Assembly (NCBI GenBank): GCA_963674745.2
Contig: CAXXDV010000001.1
Location: forward strand, 1,664,001-1,728,000
DNA from: Desulfosudaceae bacterium
Lineage (GTDB): Bacteria > Desulfobacterota > Desulfobacteria > Desulfobacterales > Desulfosudaceae
Direction: 5' to 3'
DNA: 64,000 nt
Shown: positions 8,253-24,615 of the stretch, one piece after another
Numbering within the stretch: the first letter of the stretch is position 1
How the letters are laid out: every line of letters starts with the position of its first letter
Notes under the pieces: model-generated
What the model was told of the DNA's origin: nothing
Seen by the model: the letters and a program-made list of their open reading frames with translations, nothing else
Database searches by the model: none
Position numbers and translations under genes: made by a program

Positions 8253-10910
8253 TCAGTTGTTGTTAACAGGATTTATTTTAGAAAAAAGGTCGTTTAAAAC
8301 ATTTTTGATGGCTTTTTCCAGGGCTTCGATTTGCTCCGGCGCGTCAAGCCGCTGGCCGTCCCTGTCACGCACATAAAAGACGTCAACGACCTGGTCGACT
8401 TTAGTGCCGATTTTGGCAACCCATACATCCAGACCGTATCGGAATAAAGTGTCGGTGATATGGAACAGCAGTCCCGGGCAATCATTGGTGAATACTTCAA
8501 TGATGGTAAAAAATCCGGATGTATCATTGTCAATGACTACACGGTGGGGCCGATTGGCAACACAACCATAGCGTTTCAAGTCGATTTGCTTCTCAGATAA
8601 TGTCTGCGTGAGATCCAGTTCATTGTTCAGAATCGACCGCAGTTGTTCCGCTGTTTTTTTCCAGTACAGATCCTCGTAAATCTGATCCGCTGGCGGCCGG
8701 AGCGTGAAAATGTCCAGCGCGATATCATTTTTCCAGGTGTAAATTTCAGCTTCCAGGATATCAATATTATTGATTGTAAAAGCGCCGGCTATTTTGGAAA
8801 AAAGGCCGGGCTGGTCCTTGGCGCAGATCGTTACCGTACGGGTCTGGGTGTTGCTGCCATGGCTGATTTTCCAGACAAACGGTTGTTCTTTTAATTGTTG
8901 TGCAAGCCTCATATGGTCGATGATGGCCTGTTCTTCCATATAGAGAAAATATCGCGGTGAAAGGACTTTCAGGTGAGCCTCAAGCAGGTCTTTCTCCTGG
9001 CCGGTGCCGGCTGATGCCAGCAGCAGCTGTTTTTTCTGCTCGACCGTTTCAACCGCCTGCTGAGAGGCCAGCTCGCCTTTTTCAAGAATATGAAGCACTT
9101 TAAAAAACAGGTCCCGCAGCAGTTGGGCCGTCCAGTCATTCCAGGCCTTGGGGCCGGTCGCCATGGAGTCGGCCACTGTCAGCAGGTAAAGCATTTTCAG
9201 TCGTTTAATATCCTTGATTTTCCGGGCGCAGAAGATGGCGGTTTCTTCATCGTTGGTATCCCGCCGGGTAGCGATTTTTACCAGAAAAAGATGGTTTTTG
9301 ATGAGAAACTTTACGGTGTCGACCTGTTCCGCGGAATAACCCATATTCTTTAGAATACGGGCGGCCATTCGCGCGCCCCTTTCCGAATGACCGCCGCCGG
9401 ACTTCCCCTTGCCGATATCATGCAGCAGTGTCGCCCAGAGCAGAATCGGTTTCAGTTTGCCGATTTCCCGGAACAGGTCCGCCAGTAAGGGGTTGGGGCC
9501 GGTTTTTCCGGAAAATGTTTTCATTATCCGGACGGTACGGAGGGAGTGCCGGTCAATGGGATAAAGATGGTATCCGTCAAACTGGATGCGGTTTTTGATT
9601 GATTTTACGGCCGGTATAAACCGTTCCAGAAATCCGGTCTGCAGCATTTCATTGAGCACATTAAATGTCGTGGCCGGGGTTTTTAAAATCTGTTCGAAAA
9701 CTTTTACGTTGTCCGGATTTGCCCGGAAATGTTTGTCGATCAGGTATGAAAATTCCTTTATCACCCTTCGGGCTTCCCAGCTTAAAGTCAGCTTCAATTT
9801 TGCGCTTTCATGGAAAATTTTCAGCAGTAAATCCGGCTGTCGTGGAATATACTCCGTGGCAGCAAATCCGATCTGATTGCCCTCAATTTGCAAACCTTTT
9901 ACTTCCGTGGATTTGCGATAGGCAATTTTCAGTAAAGATGGACGGGAAGCGGTCGCATCAGCAAGAAAAACCAGGTTGGTCTGTTTAATATAGGCCATTT
10001 CCGAGTGCAGTTTTCCCAGAAAACGTTCCACTGCCGGTTGTTCGCTGGTATCGCTGAACTTGAGCTGTGAAGCCAGTGTTTGTTGATGCTCAAAATAAAG
10101 CTGGTCAAATTTCCGTCGGGTCAGATGGTGAAGATGATTTCTGACGTTCCAGATAAACGATAACGCCTTGTTCAACTGTTCAAACTCGTCGCAGGACAGA
10201 TAGCCGAGGAATTCCAGGTCGCGGGGCTGAATGATTTTAGACTGAACCCGGGCAATCCATAAAATGGTATGATAATCCCTCAGTCCGCCCTGGCCGTCTT
10301 TGAGGTTCGGTTCCAGGAGATAACTGGAGTCGCCGAACTTGGCATGACGGTCGTGACTGCTCTGGATCAGCGCGTTCACAACTTTACGGGCCCGTCCACC
10401 GGTCAGGTTCTGGTTCAGCCGCTCCCGGAGCTGGGCGTAAAGCATGGACATGCCACATAAAAAACGGGCATCCAGCAGAGCGGTCATGACGTCGATATCA
10501 TCGGCTGCCAGTCGCAAACAATCTTTTATGGATCGGGTGGCGTGACCGACCTCAAACCCCATATCCCATAAAGGATAGAGGATTTCCCGAATCAACTGTT
10601 CCGCCTCTGTTGGGACCGTTTTTTCAAACAGCAGAAGAATATCGATGTCTGAATGAAGGCATTGCTCCTGTCGTCCGTAACCGCCCAGGGCGATCATGGC
10701 ATATGGCTGCTTGTGAAACTGCATTTGCGGACCGATTTGGCTGCTTTCAAAGCTGTCGATAAAATACTGGTCCAGAAGAGCCGTATGTTTGAGCAGAAAA
10801 TCGGATGTCTTCCCCTTGTCAAAAAAACCGGAGAAAAGACGGTTCCTTTCTTCCGCCAGGCGGATAGATGCATCGCTTCTGTTGATGGTGCTTTTAGCGG
10901 GTTCAGTCAT
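8253..10910 (-). CDS. glnD: [Protein-PII] uridylyltransferase / uridylyl-removing enzyme
   Basis: NTase motif ALGGYGR...SDIDIL, LEPNLKDGQGGLRD, HD domain (LLHDIGKG), two C-terminal ACT domains. Start moved to ATG 10910 (885 aa) because the ORF-track extension runs through the promoter and overlaps the divergent gene. Confidence 0.93.
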   Translation of the reverse strand: MTEPAKSTINRSDASIRLAEERNRLFSGFFDKGKTSDFLLKHTALLDQYFIDSFESSQIGPQMQFHKQPYAMIALGGYGRQEQCLHSDIDILLLFEKTVPTEAEQLIREILYPLWDMGFEVGHATRSIKDCLRLAADDIDVMTALLDARFLCGMSMLYAQLRERLNQNLTGGRARKVVNALIQSSHDRHAKFGDSSYLLEPNLKDGQGGLRDYHTILWIARVQSKIIQPRDLEFLGYLSCDEFEQLNKALSFIWNVRNHLHHLTRRKFDQLYFEHQQTLASQLKFSDTSEQPAVERFLGKLHSEMAYIKQTNLVFLADATASRPSLLKIAYRKSTEVKGLQIEGNQIGFAATEYIPRQPDLLLKIFHESAKLKLTLSWEARRVIKEFSYLIDKHFRANPDNVKVFEQILKTPATTFNVLNEMLQTGFLERFIPAVKSIKNRIQFDGYHLYPIDRHSLRTVRIMKTFSGKTGPNPLLADLFREIGKLKPILLWATLLHDIGKGKSGGGHSERGARMAARILKNMGYSAEQVDTVKFLIKNHLFLVKIATRRDTNDEETAIFCARKIKDIKRLKMLYLLTVADSMATGPKAWNDWTAQLLRDLFFKVLHILEKGELASQQAVETVEQKKQLLLASAGTGQEKDLLEAHLKVLSPRYFLYMEEQAIIDHMRLAQQLKEQPFVWKISHGSNTQTRTVTICAKDQPGLFSKIAGAFTINNIDILEAEIYTWKNDIALDIFTLRPPADQIYEDLYWKKTAEQLRSILNNELDLTQTLSEKQIDLKRYGCVANRPHRVVIDNDTSGFFTIIEVFTNDCPGLLFHITDTLFRYGLDVWVAKIGTKVDQVVDVFYVRDRDGQRLDAPEQIEALEKAIKNVLNDLFSKINPVNNN

Positions 10911-16169: not shown

Positions 16170-16889
16170 ATGACACCCAAACTGATACCGGTTGAAAAAC
16201 GAAAGGCGCCCGAGCAGATAGCGGAAATGTTGATGAAATATATATTGCAGGGTGGTGTTCGGCCCGGTGATAAATTGCCCGCGGAAAGAACCCTGTCGGC
16301 ACAGCTGAATGTTACCCGGGCCACGCTGCGGGAAGCGCTCAAAAAGTTGGAACAATTGAAATTGATAACCATTCACCAGGGCAAAGGCATTATCGTCCAG
16401 GATTTTCATAAAGCCTCCATCGATTTGATTTTTTCGTTAATGGTGATCGACGGTGAGATCGACCTGAACATTCTTGAAAATATCATGGAGGCCAGGAAAC
16501 TTTTCGGCAGCCATGTGGCCAGGCTGGCGGCCAGGCGGGCCGAGGAAAAAGATAAAAGTAAAATGCGGGCGCTGATGAAAAAAATGGAAAAGACAAGTGA
16601 TCCTAAGGCACTGCAGCAACTTGACATGGAGTTTTTTCATCTGCTCGCGGAAGCCAGTAAAAACATGGTTTTTATCCTTTTGATGAATACTATAAAAACC
16701 ATTCATAACAGTTATCTCGATCTTTTTCTGCCGCTTTCCGCGCATTCGAGCACAAATTTGAAGCAGGAAATATTACAAGCCGTTTTAAATGGTGATGAGG
16801 ATAAAGCCGCCAAACGAGCTGGTGAATTCCTTCAGTCCGGCCTGGATTTGCTTGACACACTCAAGTTTGATGAACTGAAAAACGCTTAA
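16170..16889 (+). CDS. GntR-family (FadR subfamily) transcriptional regulator
   Basis: wHTH PGDKLPAERTLSAQLNVTRATLREALKKL…HQGKG; FCD domain LDMEFF..LAEASKN. Confidence 0.93.
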   Translation: MTPKLIPVEKRKAPEQIAEMLMKYILQGGVRPGDKLPAERTLSAQLNVTRATLREALKKLEQLKLITIHQGKGIIVQDFHKASIDLIFSLMVIDGEIDLNILENIMEARKLFGSHVARLAARRAEEKDKSKMRALMKKMEKTSDPKALQQLDMEFFHLLAEASKNMVFILLMNTIKTIHNSYLDLFLPLSAHSSTNLKQEILQAVLNGDEDKAAKRAGEFLQSGLDLLDTLKFDELKNA

Positions 16890-16961
16890 CCCGAGCTTCG
16901 CTGACCGGTTTGTTAATTATTTCGTTATTTGTAAAACAACCAAAGTAAAAGGATTTAAAAA

Positions 16962-19900
16962 ATGCTGGAGATGAACACTCAAACGGCTCAAACAATAAGT
17001 GACTATACTGTTGAAACAGGACCAAAAGACCGGTTAAAGGTTTTAAATATCCAACGTACCTGCGTTTATGACGGCCCCGGAATCCGGACAACCATTTTTT
17101 TTCAGGGTTGTGCCTTGCGATGTTTATGGTGCCAGAATCCGGAATCGCTTTCAATAAATCCTGATAAAGCCCCTGAAAAAAATTACGATACAGCCGAAAT
17201 CATGGAGGTAGTGTTACGGGATAAGGATTACTATGACGCAACCGGCGGCGGCGTCACATTAAGTGGCGGGGATCCGTTATTGCAGGATTCGGACAGTTTG
17301 ATCGAATTGATGACATTGTTGAAAAAAGAGCAGATTCTTGTCGCCGTTGAAACCGCGCTGCATGTCCCTGCCGCAAATATCGAAAAGATTGCCCCTTATG
17401 CCGACCTGTTCCTGGTCGATCTGAAAATTGTCGGAAATGATGATTTGCATAAAAAGTTAACAAAACAGGACAGCCGGCTGATTCACGACAATATTAAGCG
17501 ATTGCTCGACTTGAAAGCCAACGTGAAATTCCGCATGGTCATCGTACCGGGTTATAACGACGGTCAGGACCATATCCGGGCGGCAGCGGATTTCCTTAAG
17601 TCCATCGGGTATGACACCATTGAATTGTTGAAATATCACAATATGTATGAAGATAAGGCCAGGCGTCTGGGTCTGGTGCGCGAAGCCTTGAATATTACGG
17701 CCGAACAGAGCCTGGATGCGGTCAAGTCAGCGGTGGCTTTGTTCACCAGTCTGGGTATCCGGGCCGAATGCCTGGACCTGGCAGATTCACGGCATCAGGC
17801 GACGTTCACCTCGCGCGTGCATGAAATTCAGGATGCCATTCGAACCAGCGATCATCATTTATGCCTTGAAGTATCCCGATTGAAAACCGCATTTTACAAA
17901 AAAAACGGGTTTAAGAAACCGGCCCCCATCCATCGGGCCGAACGACTGTCGCATGTGTTGAACAACAAGCAGGTGATCGTTTATCCCCGGGAACTGCTGG
18001 TCGGCAACTTTACCTCGAAAAGAAAAGGCGGCCAGGTCTGGGAAGAGCATTACGGTATCCTCTTTACCTCGATTATCCACCAGATTCATCGCCAGAAACC
18101 GGTTTCCTTTCAGTGCTCTTTTCGCGACAAGCTGGATTTTTATTTTACAATATTTCCTTTCTGGGCCAAACGGTCCCTGATGGCCAAAGTCAACCGCAAG
18201 TTTTCCGACCTGATGCTGATGGTGGCGCGCTGTTCGGAAATGAATACCGGGTTTAACAACAATATGGCGGCCATCGCGCATTTTATCGTCAATTTCGACC
18301 GTCTCCTGGAACTGGGCACCGACGGCATCATTAAAGAAATTGAAGCCGTGCGCAACGAAAACCCCGATAAGGATCAGGACTTTTATGACGGTGCGATTAT
18401 CGCCTTGCGGGCGGTCGAGGATTTCGCGGCCCGTTATGCCGAGGCCCTTTCCGCTCAAAGCAGAGAAGAGGCGGACCCGGAACGCAGAAAAGAACTCGAA
18501 GAAATGGCCGAAATCTGCCGCTATGTCCCCAAAAATCCGGCCCGCACCTTTCATGAAGCCCTTCAGTCCATGACGTTTCTGCAGATTGCACTGTGCATCG
18601 AGTCCTATGAAAACGCGGTCTCCCATGGCCGCCTGGATCAGATTTTGTATCCCTACTACCAGCAGGACCTGGCCGACGGCCGGATTACCTACGAAAAGGC
18701 CAAAGAACTGCTGGCCCTGTACATTCTCAAAATGGATGAAGCCATCCTGGTTAATGACGGCGACACTTATCTTAGAATCGGCCGGCTGTTTGAAACCATG
18801 TCCACCGATCAGACGGTAACGGCCGGCGGGCTCGGCCGGGACGGCAAGGACGCCACCAACGATCTTACTTATATGCTGCTGGATATCTGTGAACTGCAAC
18901 CCTATGCCGTTAACATGACGGCCCGGATCCACGAGGACAGTCCGCCCGAATACCTGGAGCGGCTGGCGGAAGTATATATTAACGGTGCGCCCATGCCGGC
19001 CCTTTATAATGACGAACTGTATGTCGATACCCTGACAAAGCATTACGACACCACCGTGGAAGAAGCCAGGAACTACTCGATCATCGGCTGCGTGGAACCC
19101 AATGCCTCGGACAACCATTTCGGCAATACCGACTGTGCCAACATGAACCTGGCCCTGCCCTTTCTGCAGGCACTGAAAGGCGAGGAAAACGATTTGTGGA
19201 ATTTCGGGTTCGCCGAGCAGATGGATAGGCTGATCGCCAAGTTCATCGAATACACCTTTCGGGGAAACAACCGTTTTTCCCGGTTTGTCTCTTCAACACA
19301 CGCCAAGGCCCGCATCAACCGGAAAAAGAAACGCGCCCTGTCGTCACTGAATCCTCCGGCTGACATGGAAGATCTGCTGGAGCGCTTTCAGACCCGTTTG
19401 AATCATCTGGCATCGTCCATCCTGGCCGATCATCAGCATATCGAAGCTGTTATCCGCAAAAGTTTTCCCACGCCCCTGACCTCGGCCATGTTTAAAAGCT
19501 GTATCGAAAACGGAAAAGACGCCAACGACGGCGGCACGACGCTTAACAGCAGCGGTATCCAGGGGGTCGGGATTACGGATGTGGCGGATTCGCTTTTTGC
19601 CATTGATGAGGTGGTGTTTAAAAAACGGATGTATACCATTGACGACGTCATTCATGCCATTGAAAATGACTTTGAAGGAGAAAAAAACCGGGAGGTCCGG
19701 GAGGCATTGCTGGCCGTGAGAAAATTCGGCCACGATGATTCTGCGCAGGCCGTCGAGTGGGTCAACAAAACCCTTCAGATTTACATTAACGCATTAAACC
19801 AGGTGCCCGGCTGCCCGCGCAACGGCATTTACACCGCCGGCTACTATGCCCTGAACGTTAACGATGTTTACGGCGCCAAAACACCGGCCCTGCCTTCAGG

Positions 19901-20291
19901 CAGAAAAAGAGGCGTTTCGCTTGCAAACAGCATCACGCCGCATTATGGTATGGAATCAACGGATCTGCTGTCGTCCCTGAATTCCGTTGCCGGCGTGGAT
20001 TTTGTAAAATACGCGCCCAATGGCACGTCGACAACGTTTACGATTGATTCGGCACTGTTCCAGGGCCATGCCGGTGTTAAAAATTTGGCCGGCATATTCA
20101 GCACGTATTTCCGGAAAGGCGGGATGCAGTTTCAACCCAACGTGATCGACAAAAAGATTTTGCTGGAAGCCTATGAGAACCCGGAAAAACACAAGTACCT
20201 TCTGGTTCGCGTGGCCGGTTACTGCGCTTATTTTAATGACCTTTCCGACGAGTTGAAGCAGATTATTATCAACAGGACCTGCTACTCATAA
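16962..20291 (+). CDS. Fused glycyl-radical activating enzyme (radical SAM) and glycyl radical enzyme
   Basis: N-terminal YDGPGIRTTIFFQGCALRCLWCQNPE (Cys50/54/57) and GGVTLSGGDP. From about residue 280 a GRE barrel: ELLVGNFT, GRLDQILYPYY, IGCVEP (Cys710), C-terminal VRVAGY (Gly1086). One uninterrupted 1109-aa frame. Confidence 0.93.
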   Translation: MLEMNTQTAQTISDYTVETGPKDRLKVLNIQRTCVYDGPGIRTTIFFQGCALRCLWCQNPESLSINPDKAPEKNYDTAEIMEVVLRDKDYYDATGGGVTLSGGDPLLQDSDSLIELMTLLKKEQILVAVETALHVPAANIEKIAPYADLFLVDLKIVGNDDLHKKLTKQDSRLIHDNIKRLLDLKANVKFRMVIVPGYNDGQDHIRAAADFLKSIGYDTIELLKYHNMYEDKARRLGLVREALNITAEQSLDAVKSAVALFTSLGIRAECLDLADSRHQATFTSRVHEIQDAIRTSDHHLCLEVSRLKTAFYKKNGFKKPAPIHRAERLSHVLNNKQVIVYPRELLVGNFTSKRKGGQVWEEHYGILFTSIIHQIHRQKPVSFQCSFRDKLDFYFTIFPFWAKRSLMAKVNRKFSDLMLMVARCSEMNTGFNNNMAAIAHFIVNFDRLLELGTDGIIKEIEAVRNENPDKDQDFYDGAIIALRAVEDFAARYAEALSAQSREEADPERRKELEEMAEICRYVPKNPARTFHEALQSMTFLQIALCIESYENAVSHGRLDQILYPYYQQDLADGRITYEKAKELLALYILKMDEAILVNDGDTYLRIGRLFETMSTDQTVTAGGLGRDGKDATNDLTYMLLDICELQPYAVNMTARIHEDSPPEYLERLAEVYINGAPMPALYNDELYVDTLTKHYDTTVEEARNYSIIGCVEPNASDNHFGNTDCANMNLALPFLQALKGEENDLWNFGFAEQMDRLIAKFIEYTFRGNNRFSRFVSSTHAKARINRKKKRALSSLNPPADMEDLLERFQTRLNHLASSILADHQHIEAVIRKSFPTPLTSAMFKSCIENGKDANDGGTTLNSSGIQGVGITDVADSLFAIDEVVFKKRMYTIDDVIHAIENDFEGEKNREVREALLAVRKFGHDDSAQAVEWVNKTLQIYINALNQVPGCPRNGIYTAGYYALNVNDVYGAKTPALPSGRKRGVSLANSITPHYGMESTDLLSSLNSVAGVDFVKYAPNGTSTTFTIDSALFQGHAGVKNLAGIFSTYFRKGGMQFQPNVIDKKILLEAYENPEKHKYLLVRVAGYCAYFNDLSDELKQIIINRTCYS

Positions 20292-20302
20292 CAGCATCAA
20301 AA

Positions 20303-21004
20303 ATGAATAACGTGAATTTTCCCGGATTCGGGCCGGTTCCCACGCGGGCGCAATTCTGTCTGGCCGTGCTTGTCCGGGGAGGGGAATTCCGCAGCGCGGA
20401 TTTTGTCATCCCCATCCCGGACGGTGGTTTTTCAATCAGCGGCGGTGTCGCGGACAACCTGTTCGTCGCGCCCGAAGATGACAGCCACGGCATTTACGGC
20501 CATCCCCTGACCGTTCCGGGCGGCGTCACCGGTGTCGGTAAATTGTCCCGCGCCCTGGGGAACATGGGCACCGTCACGGCCCGGGTTCAGGCCGTAAAAC
20601 CCATGATCATTCATGATCTGCTGGCCTTTGATCTCACCCTTTTTTTACGTATTCAGGTTCGAAATACCTTTGTCGGCGGAGAATGCTTTATCGGTACGCC
20701 TGAAGAGCCCCTCTCGATTGGGGTTTACCGGGCTGATTGGGACCGGTATGTCCCCAAATTGAGTCGGGACGGCCTGCCGGATCATGTGATGGCCATTGGC
20801 AATATCCATCTGGCCGCTTCCAAATTCAAGGTGCCCGCCGCCACCGGTGCCGGGCCCAAGGGGGCCTTTAACACCCTTGTCAATTCCCGGGCCGGCCTGC
20901 CCAACAAAGGATCGACAACTTCCCTCAGGATCCAGGTCGAGGCTTTTCTGGCGCACAACCCGGATTACAGGGGAAAACCGTCGCCCGCGGCCGAAGACGG
21001 CTGA
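20303..21004 (+). CDS. Hypothetical beta-rich protein, probably co-transcribed with the fused GRE
   Basis: Starts 11 bp after the GRE stop; Gly/Pro/Val-rich (LTVPGGVTG, CFIGTPEEP, VPAATG, NSRAGLP). No clear RBS. Confidence 0.7.
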   Translation: MNNVNFPGFGPVPTRAQFCLAVLVRGGEFRSADFVIPIPDGGFSISGGVADNLFVAPEDDSHGIYGHPLTVPGGVTGVGKLSRALGNMGTVTARVQAVKPMIIHDLLAFDLTLFLRIQVRNTFVGGECFIGTPEEPLSIGVYRADWDRYVPKLSRDGLPDHVMAIGNIHLAASKFKVPAATGAGPKGAFNTLVNSRAGLPNKGSTTSLRIQVEAFLAHNPDYRGKPSPAAEDG

Positions 21005-21197
21005 CAAAAAATAATCATTAAGATTTTTTTGATTCAAACGCTCCCAGAATTTTTACTGGGTTTGGTCTAGGGGACATGTTTTTTTATACGTTTTATGGCG
21101 GATAAAAGATTATTTCAGGGATGGGATAATGTTTCGAAGACCGGCTAAAGGCGCTTTCCTGTAGAGTGCTTTTTTCCGGCAGCATCACCCCGGACAA

Positions 21198-22169
21198 TTA
21201 TTTGTCACCGGTTTTTTCGATTCCCGGACTTTCTGTTCCCCGTGTATCCAGAAGCATTTTTATATCACTGATTTTATTTCTAGCGGCAATATAGCCTTCT
21301 TCGATAGCGTGTTCTACTTGATCATAGTCGAGCATTTTCAGGTCACCCAGGCGGGGTTCAATAAGAATGTCAGCCGGGTTGACGGCGAAATTGACCCGGG
21401 TGATTCTGTCCTGCATGATTTCTATGGCGGCGTGGATCACCTGGCGTGTACCGGGTGTTGATTGTCTGCTCTTTTTCTGGCTTTCCAGCCGCTCCCGGAT
21501 CATTTTTTCCGCAGCCTCATAGCGTGTGGCCAGGGTTTTTAGAAATTCGTTACGAGGTCGAGGCGGTTTTATTTCAACAGCGGTCTTGGCCGGTCGATGG
21601 CGCTTTCGGGAGACCAGTCCGGAATTTAAGTTGACGGCGATCACAATGTCAGCGCCCATGGCCCGAGCCACACCGACAGGTACCGGGTCAACCAGGCCGC
21701 CGTCAAGGAGCCATCCGCCCTTGTGGTTTACCGGTGCAAAAAGGCCGGGATAAGACATGGACGCCCGCAGTGCCTTGAGCAAATCCCCGGAATCAAGAAC
21801 CACCTGTCCGCCGGAGTACATGTCCGTGGCCGTGACCTTCAGGGGGAGATCCAGTTCGGAAAAATTCTTTTTATCGCTGTGCATGCAAAAGAGTTCCCGA
21901 AGCTTTTTGTCGCCATCGATCAGCCCCGAACGTAACAGCGTCAGGTCTGAAAAGGAAAACATGCTTTCGCCGTCCATATGGATGACATATTCTTTTAATC
22001 GTTCCAGGCCGCCGCTGGCAAAAACCGCCCCCACAAAAGCGCCGACACTGCATCCGGCTACGCAGTGAATGGGTATGTCCGCCTCCTGCAGGGCCTCAAT
22101 GGCCCCGATATGCGCCCAGCCGCGGGATGAACCGCTTCCCAGGACAAGCCCTGTTGTGGTTTTATTCAT
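21198..22169 (-). CDS. Patatin-like phospholipase (RssA/NTE family)
   Basis: LVLGSGSSRGWAHIG oxyanion motif, GCSVG (GxSxG), LDGG. Confidence 0.92.
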   Translation of the reverse strand: MNKTTTGLVLGSGSSRGWAHIGAIEALQEADIPIHCVAGCSVGAFVGAVFASGGLERLKEYVIHMDGESMFSFSDLTLLRSGLIDGDKKLRELFCMHSDKKNFSELDLPLKVTATDMYSGGQVVLDSGDLLKALRASMSYPGLFAPVNHKGGWLLDGGLVDPVPVGVARAMGADIVIAVNLNSGLVSRKRHRPAKTAVEIKPPRPRNEFLKTLATRYEAAEKMIRERLESQKKSRQSTPGTRQVIHAAIEIMQDRITRVNFAVNPADILIEPRLGDLKMLDYDQVEHAIEEGYIAARNKISDIKMLLDTRGTESPGIEKTGDK

Positions 22170-22236: not shown

Positions 22237-24615
22237 TTATTCTTTTTTTTCCGTCAGGCCCCCTATAGCCATCAGGTTCTCCCGGAAGACGTCAAAAATG
22301 TTGTTCATTCCTCCGGCCGCCGCAAAGCGTAGAACGCCGTTTGTGTCGACAACGTATGTGCTGGGCAGTTTTCGTGTAGAAAAGACACCCATGGAAATCT
22401 GATCCCTGTCGATATGGATCGGCCCCTTAAAAGGCAGGTTGTCAGCCAGTGCTTTTGATGAATCTTTGTCCCTGTCAACGATGAACACCATAAACTCAAA
22501 ACCCCGGTCCCCGAATTCTTCCTTCAGCTGTTGCAGGCTTTGCAGTTCAAAATCCACCACAAGGTTATTTGACTTGCACAGGGTAATTACGGTTATGTTC
22601 CTGGAGATGCTTTGCCTGGTAATTTCCTGTCCATTCTGGTCGGTGAATGAAAAATTCATTACAGGCATCCCCACCGTGCCGCCAAGCGGGATGTTCTCAA
22701 CTTCCTCCGGAGAAACCCGCGGGGCCTGTACCGGCCCGTCAGAACAGCATCGAAAGCCGGTTACTTCATTTCTGACACCCGGCCCGAGGCCGTCTACGGC
22801 GAAACGACAGGAAGATTTCGGCCCCAGATAAAAATGCCCGCCAAGAAGAACAGGTGTCCCCTTTGCGGATACCGCCCATTCCGATAAATTCCCCGTAAGG
22901 TCGTAAACACCCTGGGCGGAAACACAACCCGGGTAAGCGCCTGTAACATCGATACTACCTTCTTCCTTTGACTCCGAATCATGACATCGACCGCCCATGT
23001 AATACGGTCCATAAGGAAACATCCAGCCTTCTATATCATCGTCGGTAAAATTTCCGTTTCCGTTATTATCCACGGCCGGGACTCCCGTACAGGCCGTCAC
23101 CCACTCCTCTTCGCTACAAAGTCGCTTGCCGGCTTTTTGACAGGCTTTTTGGGCCATTTTCCAGGAGGCATAAGCTGGCATGACATCCGGCAGGCTGACC
23201 GCGCGGCCCTGCCTGTCAATAGCCGCTTCGAAGGTGTCGATACGGAAGGGCTTTTCTGCCGTTCTCAATGGTATGTCGGCCGGCGTATGTTCGGTCGGGA
23301 CCACCGGGACCGTCATGGCAGCGCTTGTATCCGAAGCCCGGGCGAGGGCTTTTTGAATATAATATTCAAGGATCTCCACCCCCACGTTTCCGGAAATAAG
23401 ATACCCGTTAATATATGTTCTTGGTGTGCCGTTAATCTGTACCCGGTAGCCATCCAGGACGTCTGCGGCGATTTTTTTATCCGGCCTGTCGCTGTTCAGG
23501 CAGGCATTAAACTGTTCCCGGTCCAGGCCCAGGACGTCTACCATACTCGCCAGGTCCTTATCGCTGTGTCTGGAGGAAGACCCGCTAAAAAGATAATTGT
23601 GCGCTTCCCAGAATTTGCCCTGTTCCGAAGCGCAGACGGCCGCCTTGGAAGCCTTGCAGGCATTGGGGTGTGTTGTCCTGAACCGCGGATTGCATTCCTG
23701 GTCAAGTGGGAAGTGCTTGAAAACCCATCGGATGCGGCCTTCATATTTTTTTTCAAGAGGAGCGATTTCCCGGAAAAGCGACCTACAGTGGCTGCAATTA
23801 AAATCAGCAAATTGAACAATGGTTACAGGCGCATTCTCCGGGCCTTTTACATGATCTTTATCCGTTATGGAAAAATTCATGAAAGACATGCCATGGCCGG
23901 TTTTAACGGGAACGATGTCCGTTTCGGCCGTGGCTGTCTTTGTTTCTTTTGGCGCGATCTTCGTTTCCCGGGGCCCCTCGTGCTTTGGTGACGAAGGTCG
24001 TTTCGTCTGCGCCTCGGTTTTTTTTATATATTCTGCGATCATCCCGGATTTTATCCCGGCATAAAGTGTGTATACACCGCTGAACGAAACCCAGAAAGAA
24101 ACGATTATGGCTGTCAGCACCGGCCACGACCTAAAAATCCCGAGATATGTCGCCGGTTTTGAAACGGAACGCAAGGGCCGGGGCAGAGACAGGAACGCCG
24201 TGATGGTTACGGAAAAATTGACGACGTACATCAGTATGCAATAGGTACAGACCGCCTTGATCACAACAATCGAAATATATGCCAGGTAGACCGAATAAGC
24301 ACATGTTGCCAGGCCGATGCAGAAAAGGGCGGACAGGGCCTTCTCCCGTTGCCTGCTGACCGCCGCAGCCAGAACAGCCAGAAATATCATCGAGACATAG
24401 GTGGCAATTCCGAAAAGTGTTATCGGTATGCCCATTAATTCAGACTGATCGGATGTCTGAACCATGTCACAGTTGACCTGCGCACTGTAATTGCATCCGC
24501 TGATATAGTCCGGATGATATTGAAGCTGAAGCTTAACCATGGTGAGGTACCAGGCTGCTCCGATTCCTGCGACAAGCAAAACAATGACAATGCTGAGTGA
24601 TCGTATCTTCTTCAA
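22237..24615 (-). CDS. Multidomain membrane redox protein: VKOR + DsbA-like + FGE-sulfatase-like + degenerate TlpA/redoxin domain
   Basis: VKOR (loop Cys pair, SELMGIP, CTYC); DsbA (FADFNCSHC, INGTP); FGE/SUMF1-like (GKRLCSEEEWVTAC, GVYDLTGNLSEW, GFRCC); C-terminal thioredoxin-like fold without CxxC. TTG start. Confidence 0.85.
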   Translation of the reverse strand: MKKIRSLSIVIVLLVAGIGAAWYLTMVKLQLQYHPDYISGCNYSAQVNCDMVQTSDQSELMGIPITLFGIATYVSMIFLAVLAAAVSRQREKALSALFCIGLATCAYSVYLAYISIVVIKAVCTYCILMYVVNFSVTITAFLSLPRPLRSVSKPATYLGIFRSWPVLTAIIVSFWVSFSGVYTLYAGIKSGMIAEYIKKTEAQTKRPSSPKHEGPRETKIAPKETKTATAETDIVPVKTGHGMSFMNFSITDKDHVKGPENAPVTIVQFADFNCSHCRSLFREIAPLEKKYEGRIRWVFKHFPLDQECNPRFRTTHPNACKASKAAVCASEQGKFWEAHNYLFSGSSSRHSDKDLASMVDVLGLDREQFNACLNSDRPDKKIAADVLDGYRVQINGTPRTYINGYLISGNVGVEILEYYIQKALARASDTSAAMTVPVVPTEHTPADIPLRTAEKPFRIDTFEAAIDRQGRAVSLPDVMPAYASWKMAQKACQKAGKRLCSEEEWVTACTGVPAVDNNGNGNFTDDDIEGWMFPYGPYYMGGRCHDSESKEEGSIDVTGAYPGCVSAQGVYDLTGNLSEWAVSAKGTPVLLGGHFYLGPKSSCRFAVDGLGPGVRNEVTGFRCCSDGPVQAPRVSPEEVENIPLGGTVGMPVMNFSFTDQNGQEITRQSISRNITVITLCKSNNLVVDFELQSLQQLKEEFGDRGFEFMVFIVDRDKDSSKALADNLPFKGPIHIDRDQISMGVFSTRKLPSTYVVDTNGVLRFAAAGGMNNIFDVFRENLMAIGGLTEKKE

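Follow-up and report, generated by a model that had tools for sequence, protein, structure and literature searches.

A conserved family of single-chain proteins joining a radical-SAM activase to a glycyl radical enzyme

The fused gene and its integrity

The window analysed here, i.e., a stretch of 64,000 nucleotides (nt) from contig CAXXDV010000001.1 of a Desulfosudaceae bacterium (genome G000), contains at 16962..20291 on the plus strand a single open reading frame (ORF) of 1109 codons plus stop, the longest of the region, in which a radical S-adenosylmethionine (SAM) activase domain and a glycyl radical enzyme domain follow each other on one chain (ORF calling, Pfam, NCBIfam). Glycyl radical enzymes are oxygen-sensitive, and the activase by which they are switched on is normally encoded separately. 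An AGGA sequence that resembles, and probably acts as, a ribosome-binding site lies 8 nt before the ATG (16950..16953, plus strand; sequence reading). An earlier note, made from the letters of this DNA, had described an uninterrupted frame of 1109 amino acids (aa) with both enzymes in it, and Pfam bore this out by placing Radical_SAM (residues 45-202, 63 bits), Fer4_12 (the single-cluster N-terminal motif region, residues 37-125), PFL-like (PF02901, residues 284-741 and a second stretch, 470 bits) and Gly_radical (PF01228, residues 988-1092, 76 bits) on the same chain.

The activase domain (residues ~25-269; 17034..17768, plus strand, as are all features of this gene) is PflA-sized and without a ferredoxin-like insert, as delimited from Pfam, NCBIfam, an alignment to PflA and an AlphaFold2 model, and it carries the CX3CX2C cluster motif C50-C54-C57 (17109..17132). 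It is followed by a conserved linker, DLADSRHQATFTSR (residues 270-283; 17769..17810), recognised as a coil in the model and from an alignment of 60 family members, and then by the enzyme domain (residues 284-1109; 17811..20288; Pfam, NCBIfam and Foldseek). Within the latter, motif reading and alignments locate the Cys loop G709-C710-V711-E712-P713, with its putative thiyl Cys and eliminase-type Glu, at 19086..19100; split PFL-like matches and the model locate a family-specific insertion with two predicted helices (residues ~742-800) at 19185..19361; and the motif, Pfam and the alignment locate the glycyl radical loop R1083-V-A-G1086-Y1087 at 20208..20222. Both loops, as well as D37-G-P-G-I-R42, the three clustered cysteines and GGVTLSGG (G96-G103), were found at the residues that the earlier note had given them.

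The alignment comprised 60 full-length members from at least six phyla, 61-88% identical to the window protein, and had a mean column identity of 71%. Invariant in all 60 sequences were D37, G38, P39, G40, R42, C50, C54, C57, G102, G103, D153 and K155 of the activase domain, and H440, N551, A552, D616, Q617, GCVEP (709-713), D724, Y962, R1083, A1085, G1086 and Y1087 of the enzyme domain. The linker is only 14 residues long and no low-complexity spacer, and A280 and F282 within it were likewise invariant, as were R285 and V286 just beyond it. Because relatives span that many phyla at such identities, the activase domain must be under strong purifying selection, and the same can be said, judging from the alignment, of the fused protein as a whole.

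The AlphaFold2 model, built on this alignment, had a mean predicted local distance difference test score (pLDDT) of 85.8 and a predicted template modelling score of 0.86, with pLDDT values below 50 only at residues 1-21 and 67-70. The activase domain adopted a beta/alpha fold (pLDDT mostly 80-94) and the linker (270-283) a coil (pLDDT of 74 for the block 271-280). A prediction of the complex between the activase (25-270) and the glycyl radical domain (1030-1109) ended in 'no answer' (score of 0.00), and carries no weight either way.

The junction was read identically in contig assemblies of two sequencing runs (X1 and X2), which cover 16900-18400 with 0 differences and 0 gaps; two further runs (X3 and X4) contributed short pieces only, none of them bridging 17716-17919. 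Runs X1 and X2 belong to a single sample, possibly the one that this genome came from, and independent evidence is provided by the relatives. A word-indexed homologue search yielded 1022 hits among 7998 scored candidates, and the best 120 of these 1022 homologues were all of full length (1058-1139 aa), 67-88% identical and equipped with Radical_SAM, PFL-like and Gly_radical. Moreover, a scan in which each prokaryote species was represented by one genome returned 161 related stretches making up 63 loci. ORFs were called in the 52 of these with a complete match and in the window (i.e., 53 loci), and an uninterrupted single frame was present in 50 of the 53 (window included), with not a single cleanly split gene pair among them. 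One of the intact frames (L054) was initially masked by a spurious overlapping ORF and recovered by a hand check. The other 11 loci (8 truncated by the end of their contig, 3 located on short contigs) were compared by tblastn, and each gave a single-frame match over the part present, 10 of them across the junction.

The three broken loci comprised L016 (a single additional base exactly between codons 277 and 278, at 8771-8773, on a 1.07-Mb contig of a metagenome-assembled genome (MAG)), L061 (residues 310-396 deleted) and L063 (an overlap duplicated at residues 160-177), and in none of the three does the frame stop at the domain border and start anew. Taken over all relatives' loci covering the junction, 61 of 62 read through it in one frame. 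L016 is the sole relative broken at this point and, if no long-read error, would be a natural and very recent split.

Possible split relatives were also sought among shorter proteins. Those matching residues 1-280 (at least 45% identity; e.g., the cluster P0281 with 11 members of 49-330 aa) ended at widely scattered positions (123 to 612), in many cases carried unrelated tails, and are therefore likely fragments or frameshift products. P0308 (264 aa, 48% identical) was rejected as a stand-alone activase since its frame on L072 stays open beyond residue 264 until the contig ends; L073 holds a family member of 1110 aa, 65% identical to the window protein without gaps. L101 turned out to be an ordinary PflB/PflA pair and is not relevant.

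The earlier note had considered that reads might reveal a stop or frameshift at the junction, or that close homologues might always be encoded as two genes; the former was not seen in the X1 and X2 assemblies, and the single frames in relatives speak against the latter. An artefact, in which an error of sequencing or assembly at the junction had joined neighbouring activase and enzyme genes, could draw on L016 as proof that single-base differences happen at that very spot. Nevertheless, with two separate assemblies giving the same junction, one frame across it in nearly all relatives, invariant residues in and beside the linker and full-length chains throughout the best 120 of the 1022 homologues, such an origin has a negligible chance of being true, and this family is natively fused.

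The activase and enzyme domains

The N-terminal domain scored 208.6 with the TIGR02494 (PFLE_PFLC) model (cut-off 174.35), in two pieces corresponding to model positions 1-41 and 102-282. Positions ~42-101 were left unmatched, in line with the missing ferredoxin-like insert that the earlier note had reported. A Fer4 Pfam match was absent from the fused chain and present in two distant fusions (P0123 and P0126, see below) and in this genome's own stand-alone activase. All activase motifs were in place, i.e., CX3CX2C (C50/C54/C57), DGxGxR (D37-R42) and the SAM motif (G102-G103-D104), and aligned to those of PflA; D104 was read in the window only, and the other motifs were those checked as invariant in the 60 members.

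The closest counterpart of the domain is Escherichia coli PflA (3c8f/3cb8), with which it is colinear (residues 34-237 vs. 13-213 of the 245 of PflA, with one 4-residue gap) and shares the motifs and the single-cluster architecture. The match amounts to 96 bits only, and PflA is a free protein acting on a separate PflB. PflB carries a Cys-Cys pair, whereas the fused enzyme has Cys-Val-Glu. Given the missing ferredoxin-like insert and the colinearity with E. coli PflA, the domain is a minimal, single-cluster, PflA-like activase. The loss of the auxiliary-cluster insert of related PFL2-type activases, along with a score below the cut-off of the PflA equivalog (TIGR02493; 152.5 vs. 231.75), might alternatively mean that the domain has degenerated into a non-catalytic relic with a merely structural or regulatory role, so that a separate activase would be needed. 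This is very unlikely, as the catalytic motifs are invariant in all 60 members, the equally insert-free E. coli PflA is active, and the span and identity of the relatives point to strong purifying selection on the domain.

In the enzyme part, the ten-stranded barrel, the R-V-x-G-[FWY] glycyl motif and the Cys-x-Glu loop of PFL2-type enzymes were each found. Foldseek comparison of the modelled enzyme part gave target-normalised template modelling (TM) scores of 0.93 to glycerol dehydratase (1r8w) and to 2f3o, and of 0.91 to 1,2-propanediol dehydratase. The Clostridium butyricum glycerol dehydratase (1r8w/1r9d) and the 1,2-propanediol dehydratases (5i2a/5i2g, 9rco) thus share the fold (TM scores of 0.91-0.93) at 26-28% identity. 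Their activases are separate proteins with ferredoxin-like inserts, a type that this genome's own stand-alone activase also represents.

Matches to other glycyl radical enzymes all stop at ~741 and resume at ~800, and in the AlphaFold2 model the intervening region forms a hairpin of two helices (750-765 and 771-793). Local alignment revealed these extra ~41-45 residues after the Cys loop in the three family members included, and their absence from P0123, P0124, P0126, P0128 and four further unfused enzymes. Two features are specific to the family: an activase that has lost its ferredoxin-like insert and an enzyme that has gained a helical hairpin.

The pocket was read from an alignment of the enzyme to glycerol dehydratase 1r8w, with residue numbers of the latter that we take to be the customary ones and that were checked by counting along this alignment. 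Cys433/Glu435, His164, Asp447, Tyr640 and Asn156 of glycerol dehydratase are kept as C710/E712, H440, D724, Y962 and N432, respectively, a catalytic set that would fit a 1,2-elimination by a dehydratase or lyase.

Relatives, spread and gene neighbourhood

When 1.84 billion cluster representatives were searched exhaustively with HMMER, a single cluster at 50% identity (P0043) took in the whole family. It was followed, among full-length matches, by P0123 (1095 aa, 40% identical) and P0126 (1136 aa, 36%), and the nearest unfused enzymes, P0128 and P0129, were 35-38% identical. P0123, P0126 and the fragment P0133 are activase-enzyme fusions as well, with the Fer4 insert kept in the activase. The distant fusions P0123 and P0126/P0389 have the same domain order on one chain (activase, then enzyme), but differ from the family in their 36-40% identity, their longer linkers and their lack of the helical insertion. 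The two source records of P0126 and P0389 assign these proteins to Anaeramoeba flamelloides, an anaerobic eukaryote. Their loops are altered, with G-S-C-E-L in place of G-C-V-E-P and P-L-S-G-N in place of R-V-A-G-Y, and judging from these changes the Anaeramoeba fusion may be inactive or divergent. No paper on these distant fusions was found among the listed results of a literature search.

A FastTree phylogeny of 137 enzyme domains recovered a 14-row clade (Shimodaira-Hasegawa-like support of 98) consisting of the family (10 rows), P0124 (a partial protein from a Waddliaceae MAG), P0126, P0123 and P0128 (a complete unfused enzyme from a deltaproteobacterial MAG). In an IQ-TREE phylogeny of 71 activase sequences, the family domain grouped with P0308, P0304 and P0307 (support of 97), and all fused domains were found in one 29-row group (support of 93) mixed with 14 stand-alone activases. 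Because the fused types share their enzyme clade with the unfused P0128 and their activase group with stand-alone activases, two histories are both possible: a single old fusion, after which this family lost the ferredoxin insert and gained the hairpin, or several independent fusions of neighbouring cognate genes.

By record title, the 63 loci belong to Thermodesulfobacteriota (18), Spirochaetota (15), Myxococcota (13), Bacillota (7), Bdellovibrionota (2), Pseudomonadota (1), unplaced bacteria (6) and an Asgard archaeon (1). The distribution is patchy, since the gene was present in only 4 of 400 other sampled genomes of the window's phylum, from two genera, and in 0 of 13 genomes of the same order. 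Since identities nevertheless stay at 61-70% between phyla and even domains, this patchiness suggests that the gene has spread horizontally. The Asgard (Sigynarchaeota) genome, G405, holds two fused genes on contigs C205 (the contig of L071) and C265, where the frames are open for 1129 and 1117 aa, respectively.

Upstream of the fused gene in the window, at a distance of 72 nt, lies a gene for a GntR-family regulator with an FCD ligand domain (239 aa; 16170..16889, plus strand; Pfam GntR, FCD and FadR_C). Its best NCBIfam resemblances, all below cut-off, were to LldR, NanR, PdhR, FadR and GlcC, which sense small carboxylates. In a context survey in which 719 ORFs from the 53 loci were clustered and 193 flanking ORFs were searched with Pfam, this GntR/FCD regulator was the only recurrent neighbour, located directly upstream on the same strand (a 17-member cluster). 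Other loci have a TetR (5) or AraC (2) regulator in its place. Where it lies upstream, the GntR/FCD regulator probably controls the fused gene.

Enzymes of aldehyde or alcohol redox chemistry adjoin the gene in 7 of 52 loci, i.e., aldehyde:ferredoxin oxidoreductase (L019, L041), Fe-alcohol dehydrogenase (L043, L048), Zn-alcohol dehydrogenase (L061), a GMC oxidoreductase (L050) and an OYE-type flavoenzyme (L064), which hints at an aldehyde product. Phosphoesterases adjoin it in 9 loci (Metallophos in 7, GDPD in 2), again no more than a hint.

Downstream in the window, ~900 nt holding doubtful ORFs only separate the fused gene from a patatin-like phospholipase gene (21198-22169, minus strand; Pfam). 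These are an ORF of 233 aa that starts 12 nt after the fused gene (20303..21004, plus strand; ORF calling) and another at 20645-21037 (minus strand; ORF calling). The former was rejected as a partner, having no Pfam family, no relative in the 63 loci and low protein-atlas recognition. A loose phospho-ester or lipid head-group theme, which may be chance, was noted around the fused gene across lineages (L056, L066, L020-L022, L037, L039, L044, L045, L059 and L027): besides the patatin of the window, its members are GDPD and MFS_2 transporters in two Clostridia loci, Metallophos in seven loci, PEMT in one locus, and START with an FGGY kinase in one locus. Beyond the patatin gene, a protein of 792 aa combines VKOR, DsbA/thioredoxin, FGE-sulfatase-like and AhpC/TSA domains (22237-24615, minus strand; Pfam), an unusual redox fusion.

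Proposed self-activation, probable reaction and meaning

The explanation we favour, and consider likely, is that the gene encodes a genuine single-chain, self-activating glycyl radical enzyme system with an eliminase-type reaction. In this scheme, the N-terminal activase, tethered to a PFL2-type enzyme, would bear a single [4Fe-4S] cluster on C50/C54/C57 and be free of auxiliary clusters. Its reduced cluster would cleave SAM, and the resulting 5'-deoxyadenosyl radical would take a hydrogen from G1086, either on the activase's own chain or on the dimer partner. The glycyl radical would then generate a thiyl radical at C710, which together with E712 and H440 would drive a 1,2-elimination-type reaction on a small polar substrate outside the known ones. 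Expression would probably be controlled by the upstream FCD-type GntR regulator, with a small organic acid as the signal.

Self-activation is deemed probable because the motifs of both halves are complete, the two are tethered, and the gene counts of two small genomes (G402 and G404) are in keeping with it: besides the fused gene, each contains exactly one glycyl radical enzyme, which has an activase of its own next to it, so that two enzymes stand against two activases. Of the earlier note's proposal, the genuine and conserved fusion with two motif-complete halves is borne out by the loci and alignments above, and the self-activating enzyme it had proposed retains the standing of a probable reading.

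Several observations weigh against this explanation. Activases are thought to act catalytically, so a permanent 1:1 tether is unexpected. The present genome is unusually rich in PFL-like glycyl radical enzyme genes (~10) and has four stand-alone TIGR02494-type activases above cut-off, which adjoin four of the enzyme genes, while by coordinates five enzymes are without an adjacent activase; an outside activase could thus serve the fused enzyme, or the fused domain could serve others. Further enzymes and activases were present in all nine other genomes checked, which argues against exclusivity, and the clean two-to-two count was seen in G402 and G404 only. With regard to the reaction, the score with TIGR01774 (the PFL2/glycerol-dehydratase subfamily) stayed below cut-off (507.5 vs. 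678.2), lowered by the family-specific insertion and by divergence, and all substrate-specific equivalogs (HypD, CutC, HpsG/HpfG, PflD, the indoleacetate and 4-hydroxyphenylacetate decarboxylases, and PflB) were below theirs as well, the highest being HpfG with 384 bits vs. a cut-off of 1000. Moreover, H281, S282 and Y339 of the glycerol dehydratase pocket are replaced by N551, A552 and D616, all invariant in the family. Finally, the GntR/FCD regulator was confirmed by Pfam in the window and in only 15 of the 52 relatives' loci, and no enzyme partner conserved beside the fused gene emerged from the 53 surveyed loci.

The counts in this genome, together with an enzyme gene without an adjacent activase in another one (G082), would also suit a shared activase, in which the fused domain also or mainly serves other enzymes in trans and the fusion only provides co-regulation. 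We regard this as improbable, since the conserved 14-residue linker would keep the domain on its own enzyme, G402 and G404 have no orphan enzyme to serve, and the fused gene moves between phyla by itself, unaccompanied by other enzymes. As to the other enzymes of this genome, three paralogues, L003 (1084-4032, minus strand), L004 (802-3891, plus strand) and L005 (1084-4047, minus strand), of 982, 1029 and 987 aa, respectively, carry N-terminal extensions of ~190-230 residues that belong to no Pfam family. Such long forms also occur among database representatives (e.g., P0191, P0194, P0209 and P0228). L003 adjoins a ferredoxin-type activase and L005 an acyl-CoA dehydrogenase fragment.

Because three pocket residues are changed, the eliminase-type reaction of the single-chain enzyme is a guess from the retained Cys/Glu/His set. 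The pocket signature differs from that of the nearest fused and unfused neighbours as well. The best sequence match among solved structures, Archaeoglobus fulgidus PFL2/PflD (2f3o; 350 bits, ~30% identity), shares Y-E-(N/Q)-A-(V/I)-S where glycerol dehydratase has H281/S282, and also shares GCVE, but it has N where the fused family has D616, lacks the insertion after the Cys loop and is unfused, with a separately encoded activase. We know of no assigned substrate for it. As a matter of speculation, a substrate that is cationic or polyhydroxylated would go well with the acidic D616 and D724 next to E712.

A stronger version of the single-chain explanation, which is conceivable though rather doubtful, holds that the enzyme is obligately self-sufficient: the activase, its auxiliary clusters shed, would be permanently docked on its own enzyme via the hairpin (residues ~742-800) and re-install the radical each time it is lost, and the invariant N551/A552/D616 pocket would serve a reaction on a substrate new to this enzyme class. 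If true, the protein would provide the first natural activase-enzyme complex of fixed stoichiometry in which activation could be studied structurally. To our knowledge, a full activase-enzyme complex, in which the activase reaches the buried glycine, has not been seen; PflA with a peptide is reportedly the only structure for this step, and a PDB search returned no entry named as an activase-enzyme complex.

The earlier note knew of no characterised example of such a fusion, and its caution stands: full-text literature searches, with subscription journals outside their coverage, returned no description of a natural activase-enzyme fusion. Among the matching papers, 'fused' has unrelated meanings in PMC3543383 and PMC13416013, PMC9850924 reports an engineered PFL-EutD fusion, and PMC5041501 reports a DyP-PFL fusion with a separate activase.

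The fused gene departs in its architecture from a well-known two-protein system; this variant is real, is conserved among many anaerobes that are uncultured, and has as its enzyme half a clade that is uncharacterised. Since this clade is deep and has an invariant pocket of its own, the enzyme half probably catalyses a reaction not yet assigned. The conserved 1:1 fusion with its short, rigid-looking linker offers a ready-made construct for cryo-electron microscopy, electron paramagnetic resonance and kinetics of activation, and a one-gene part for heterologous expression. It also raises the question of why there should be one activase per enzyme, the answer to which may bear on radical repair under oxygen exposure.

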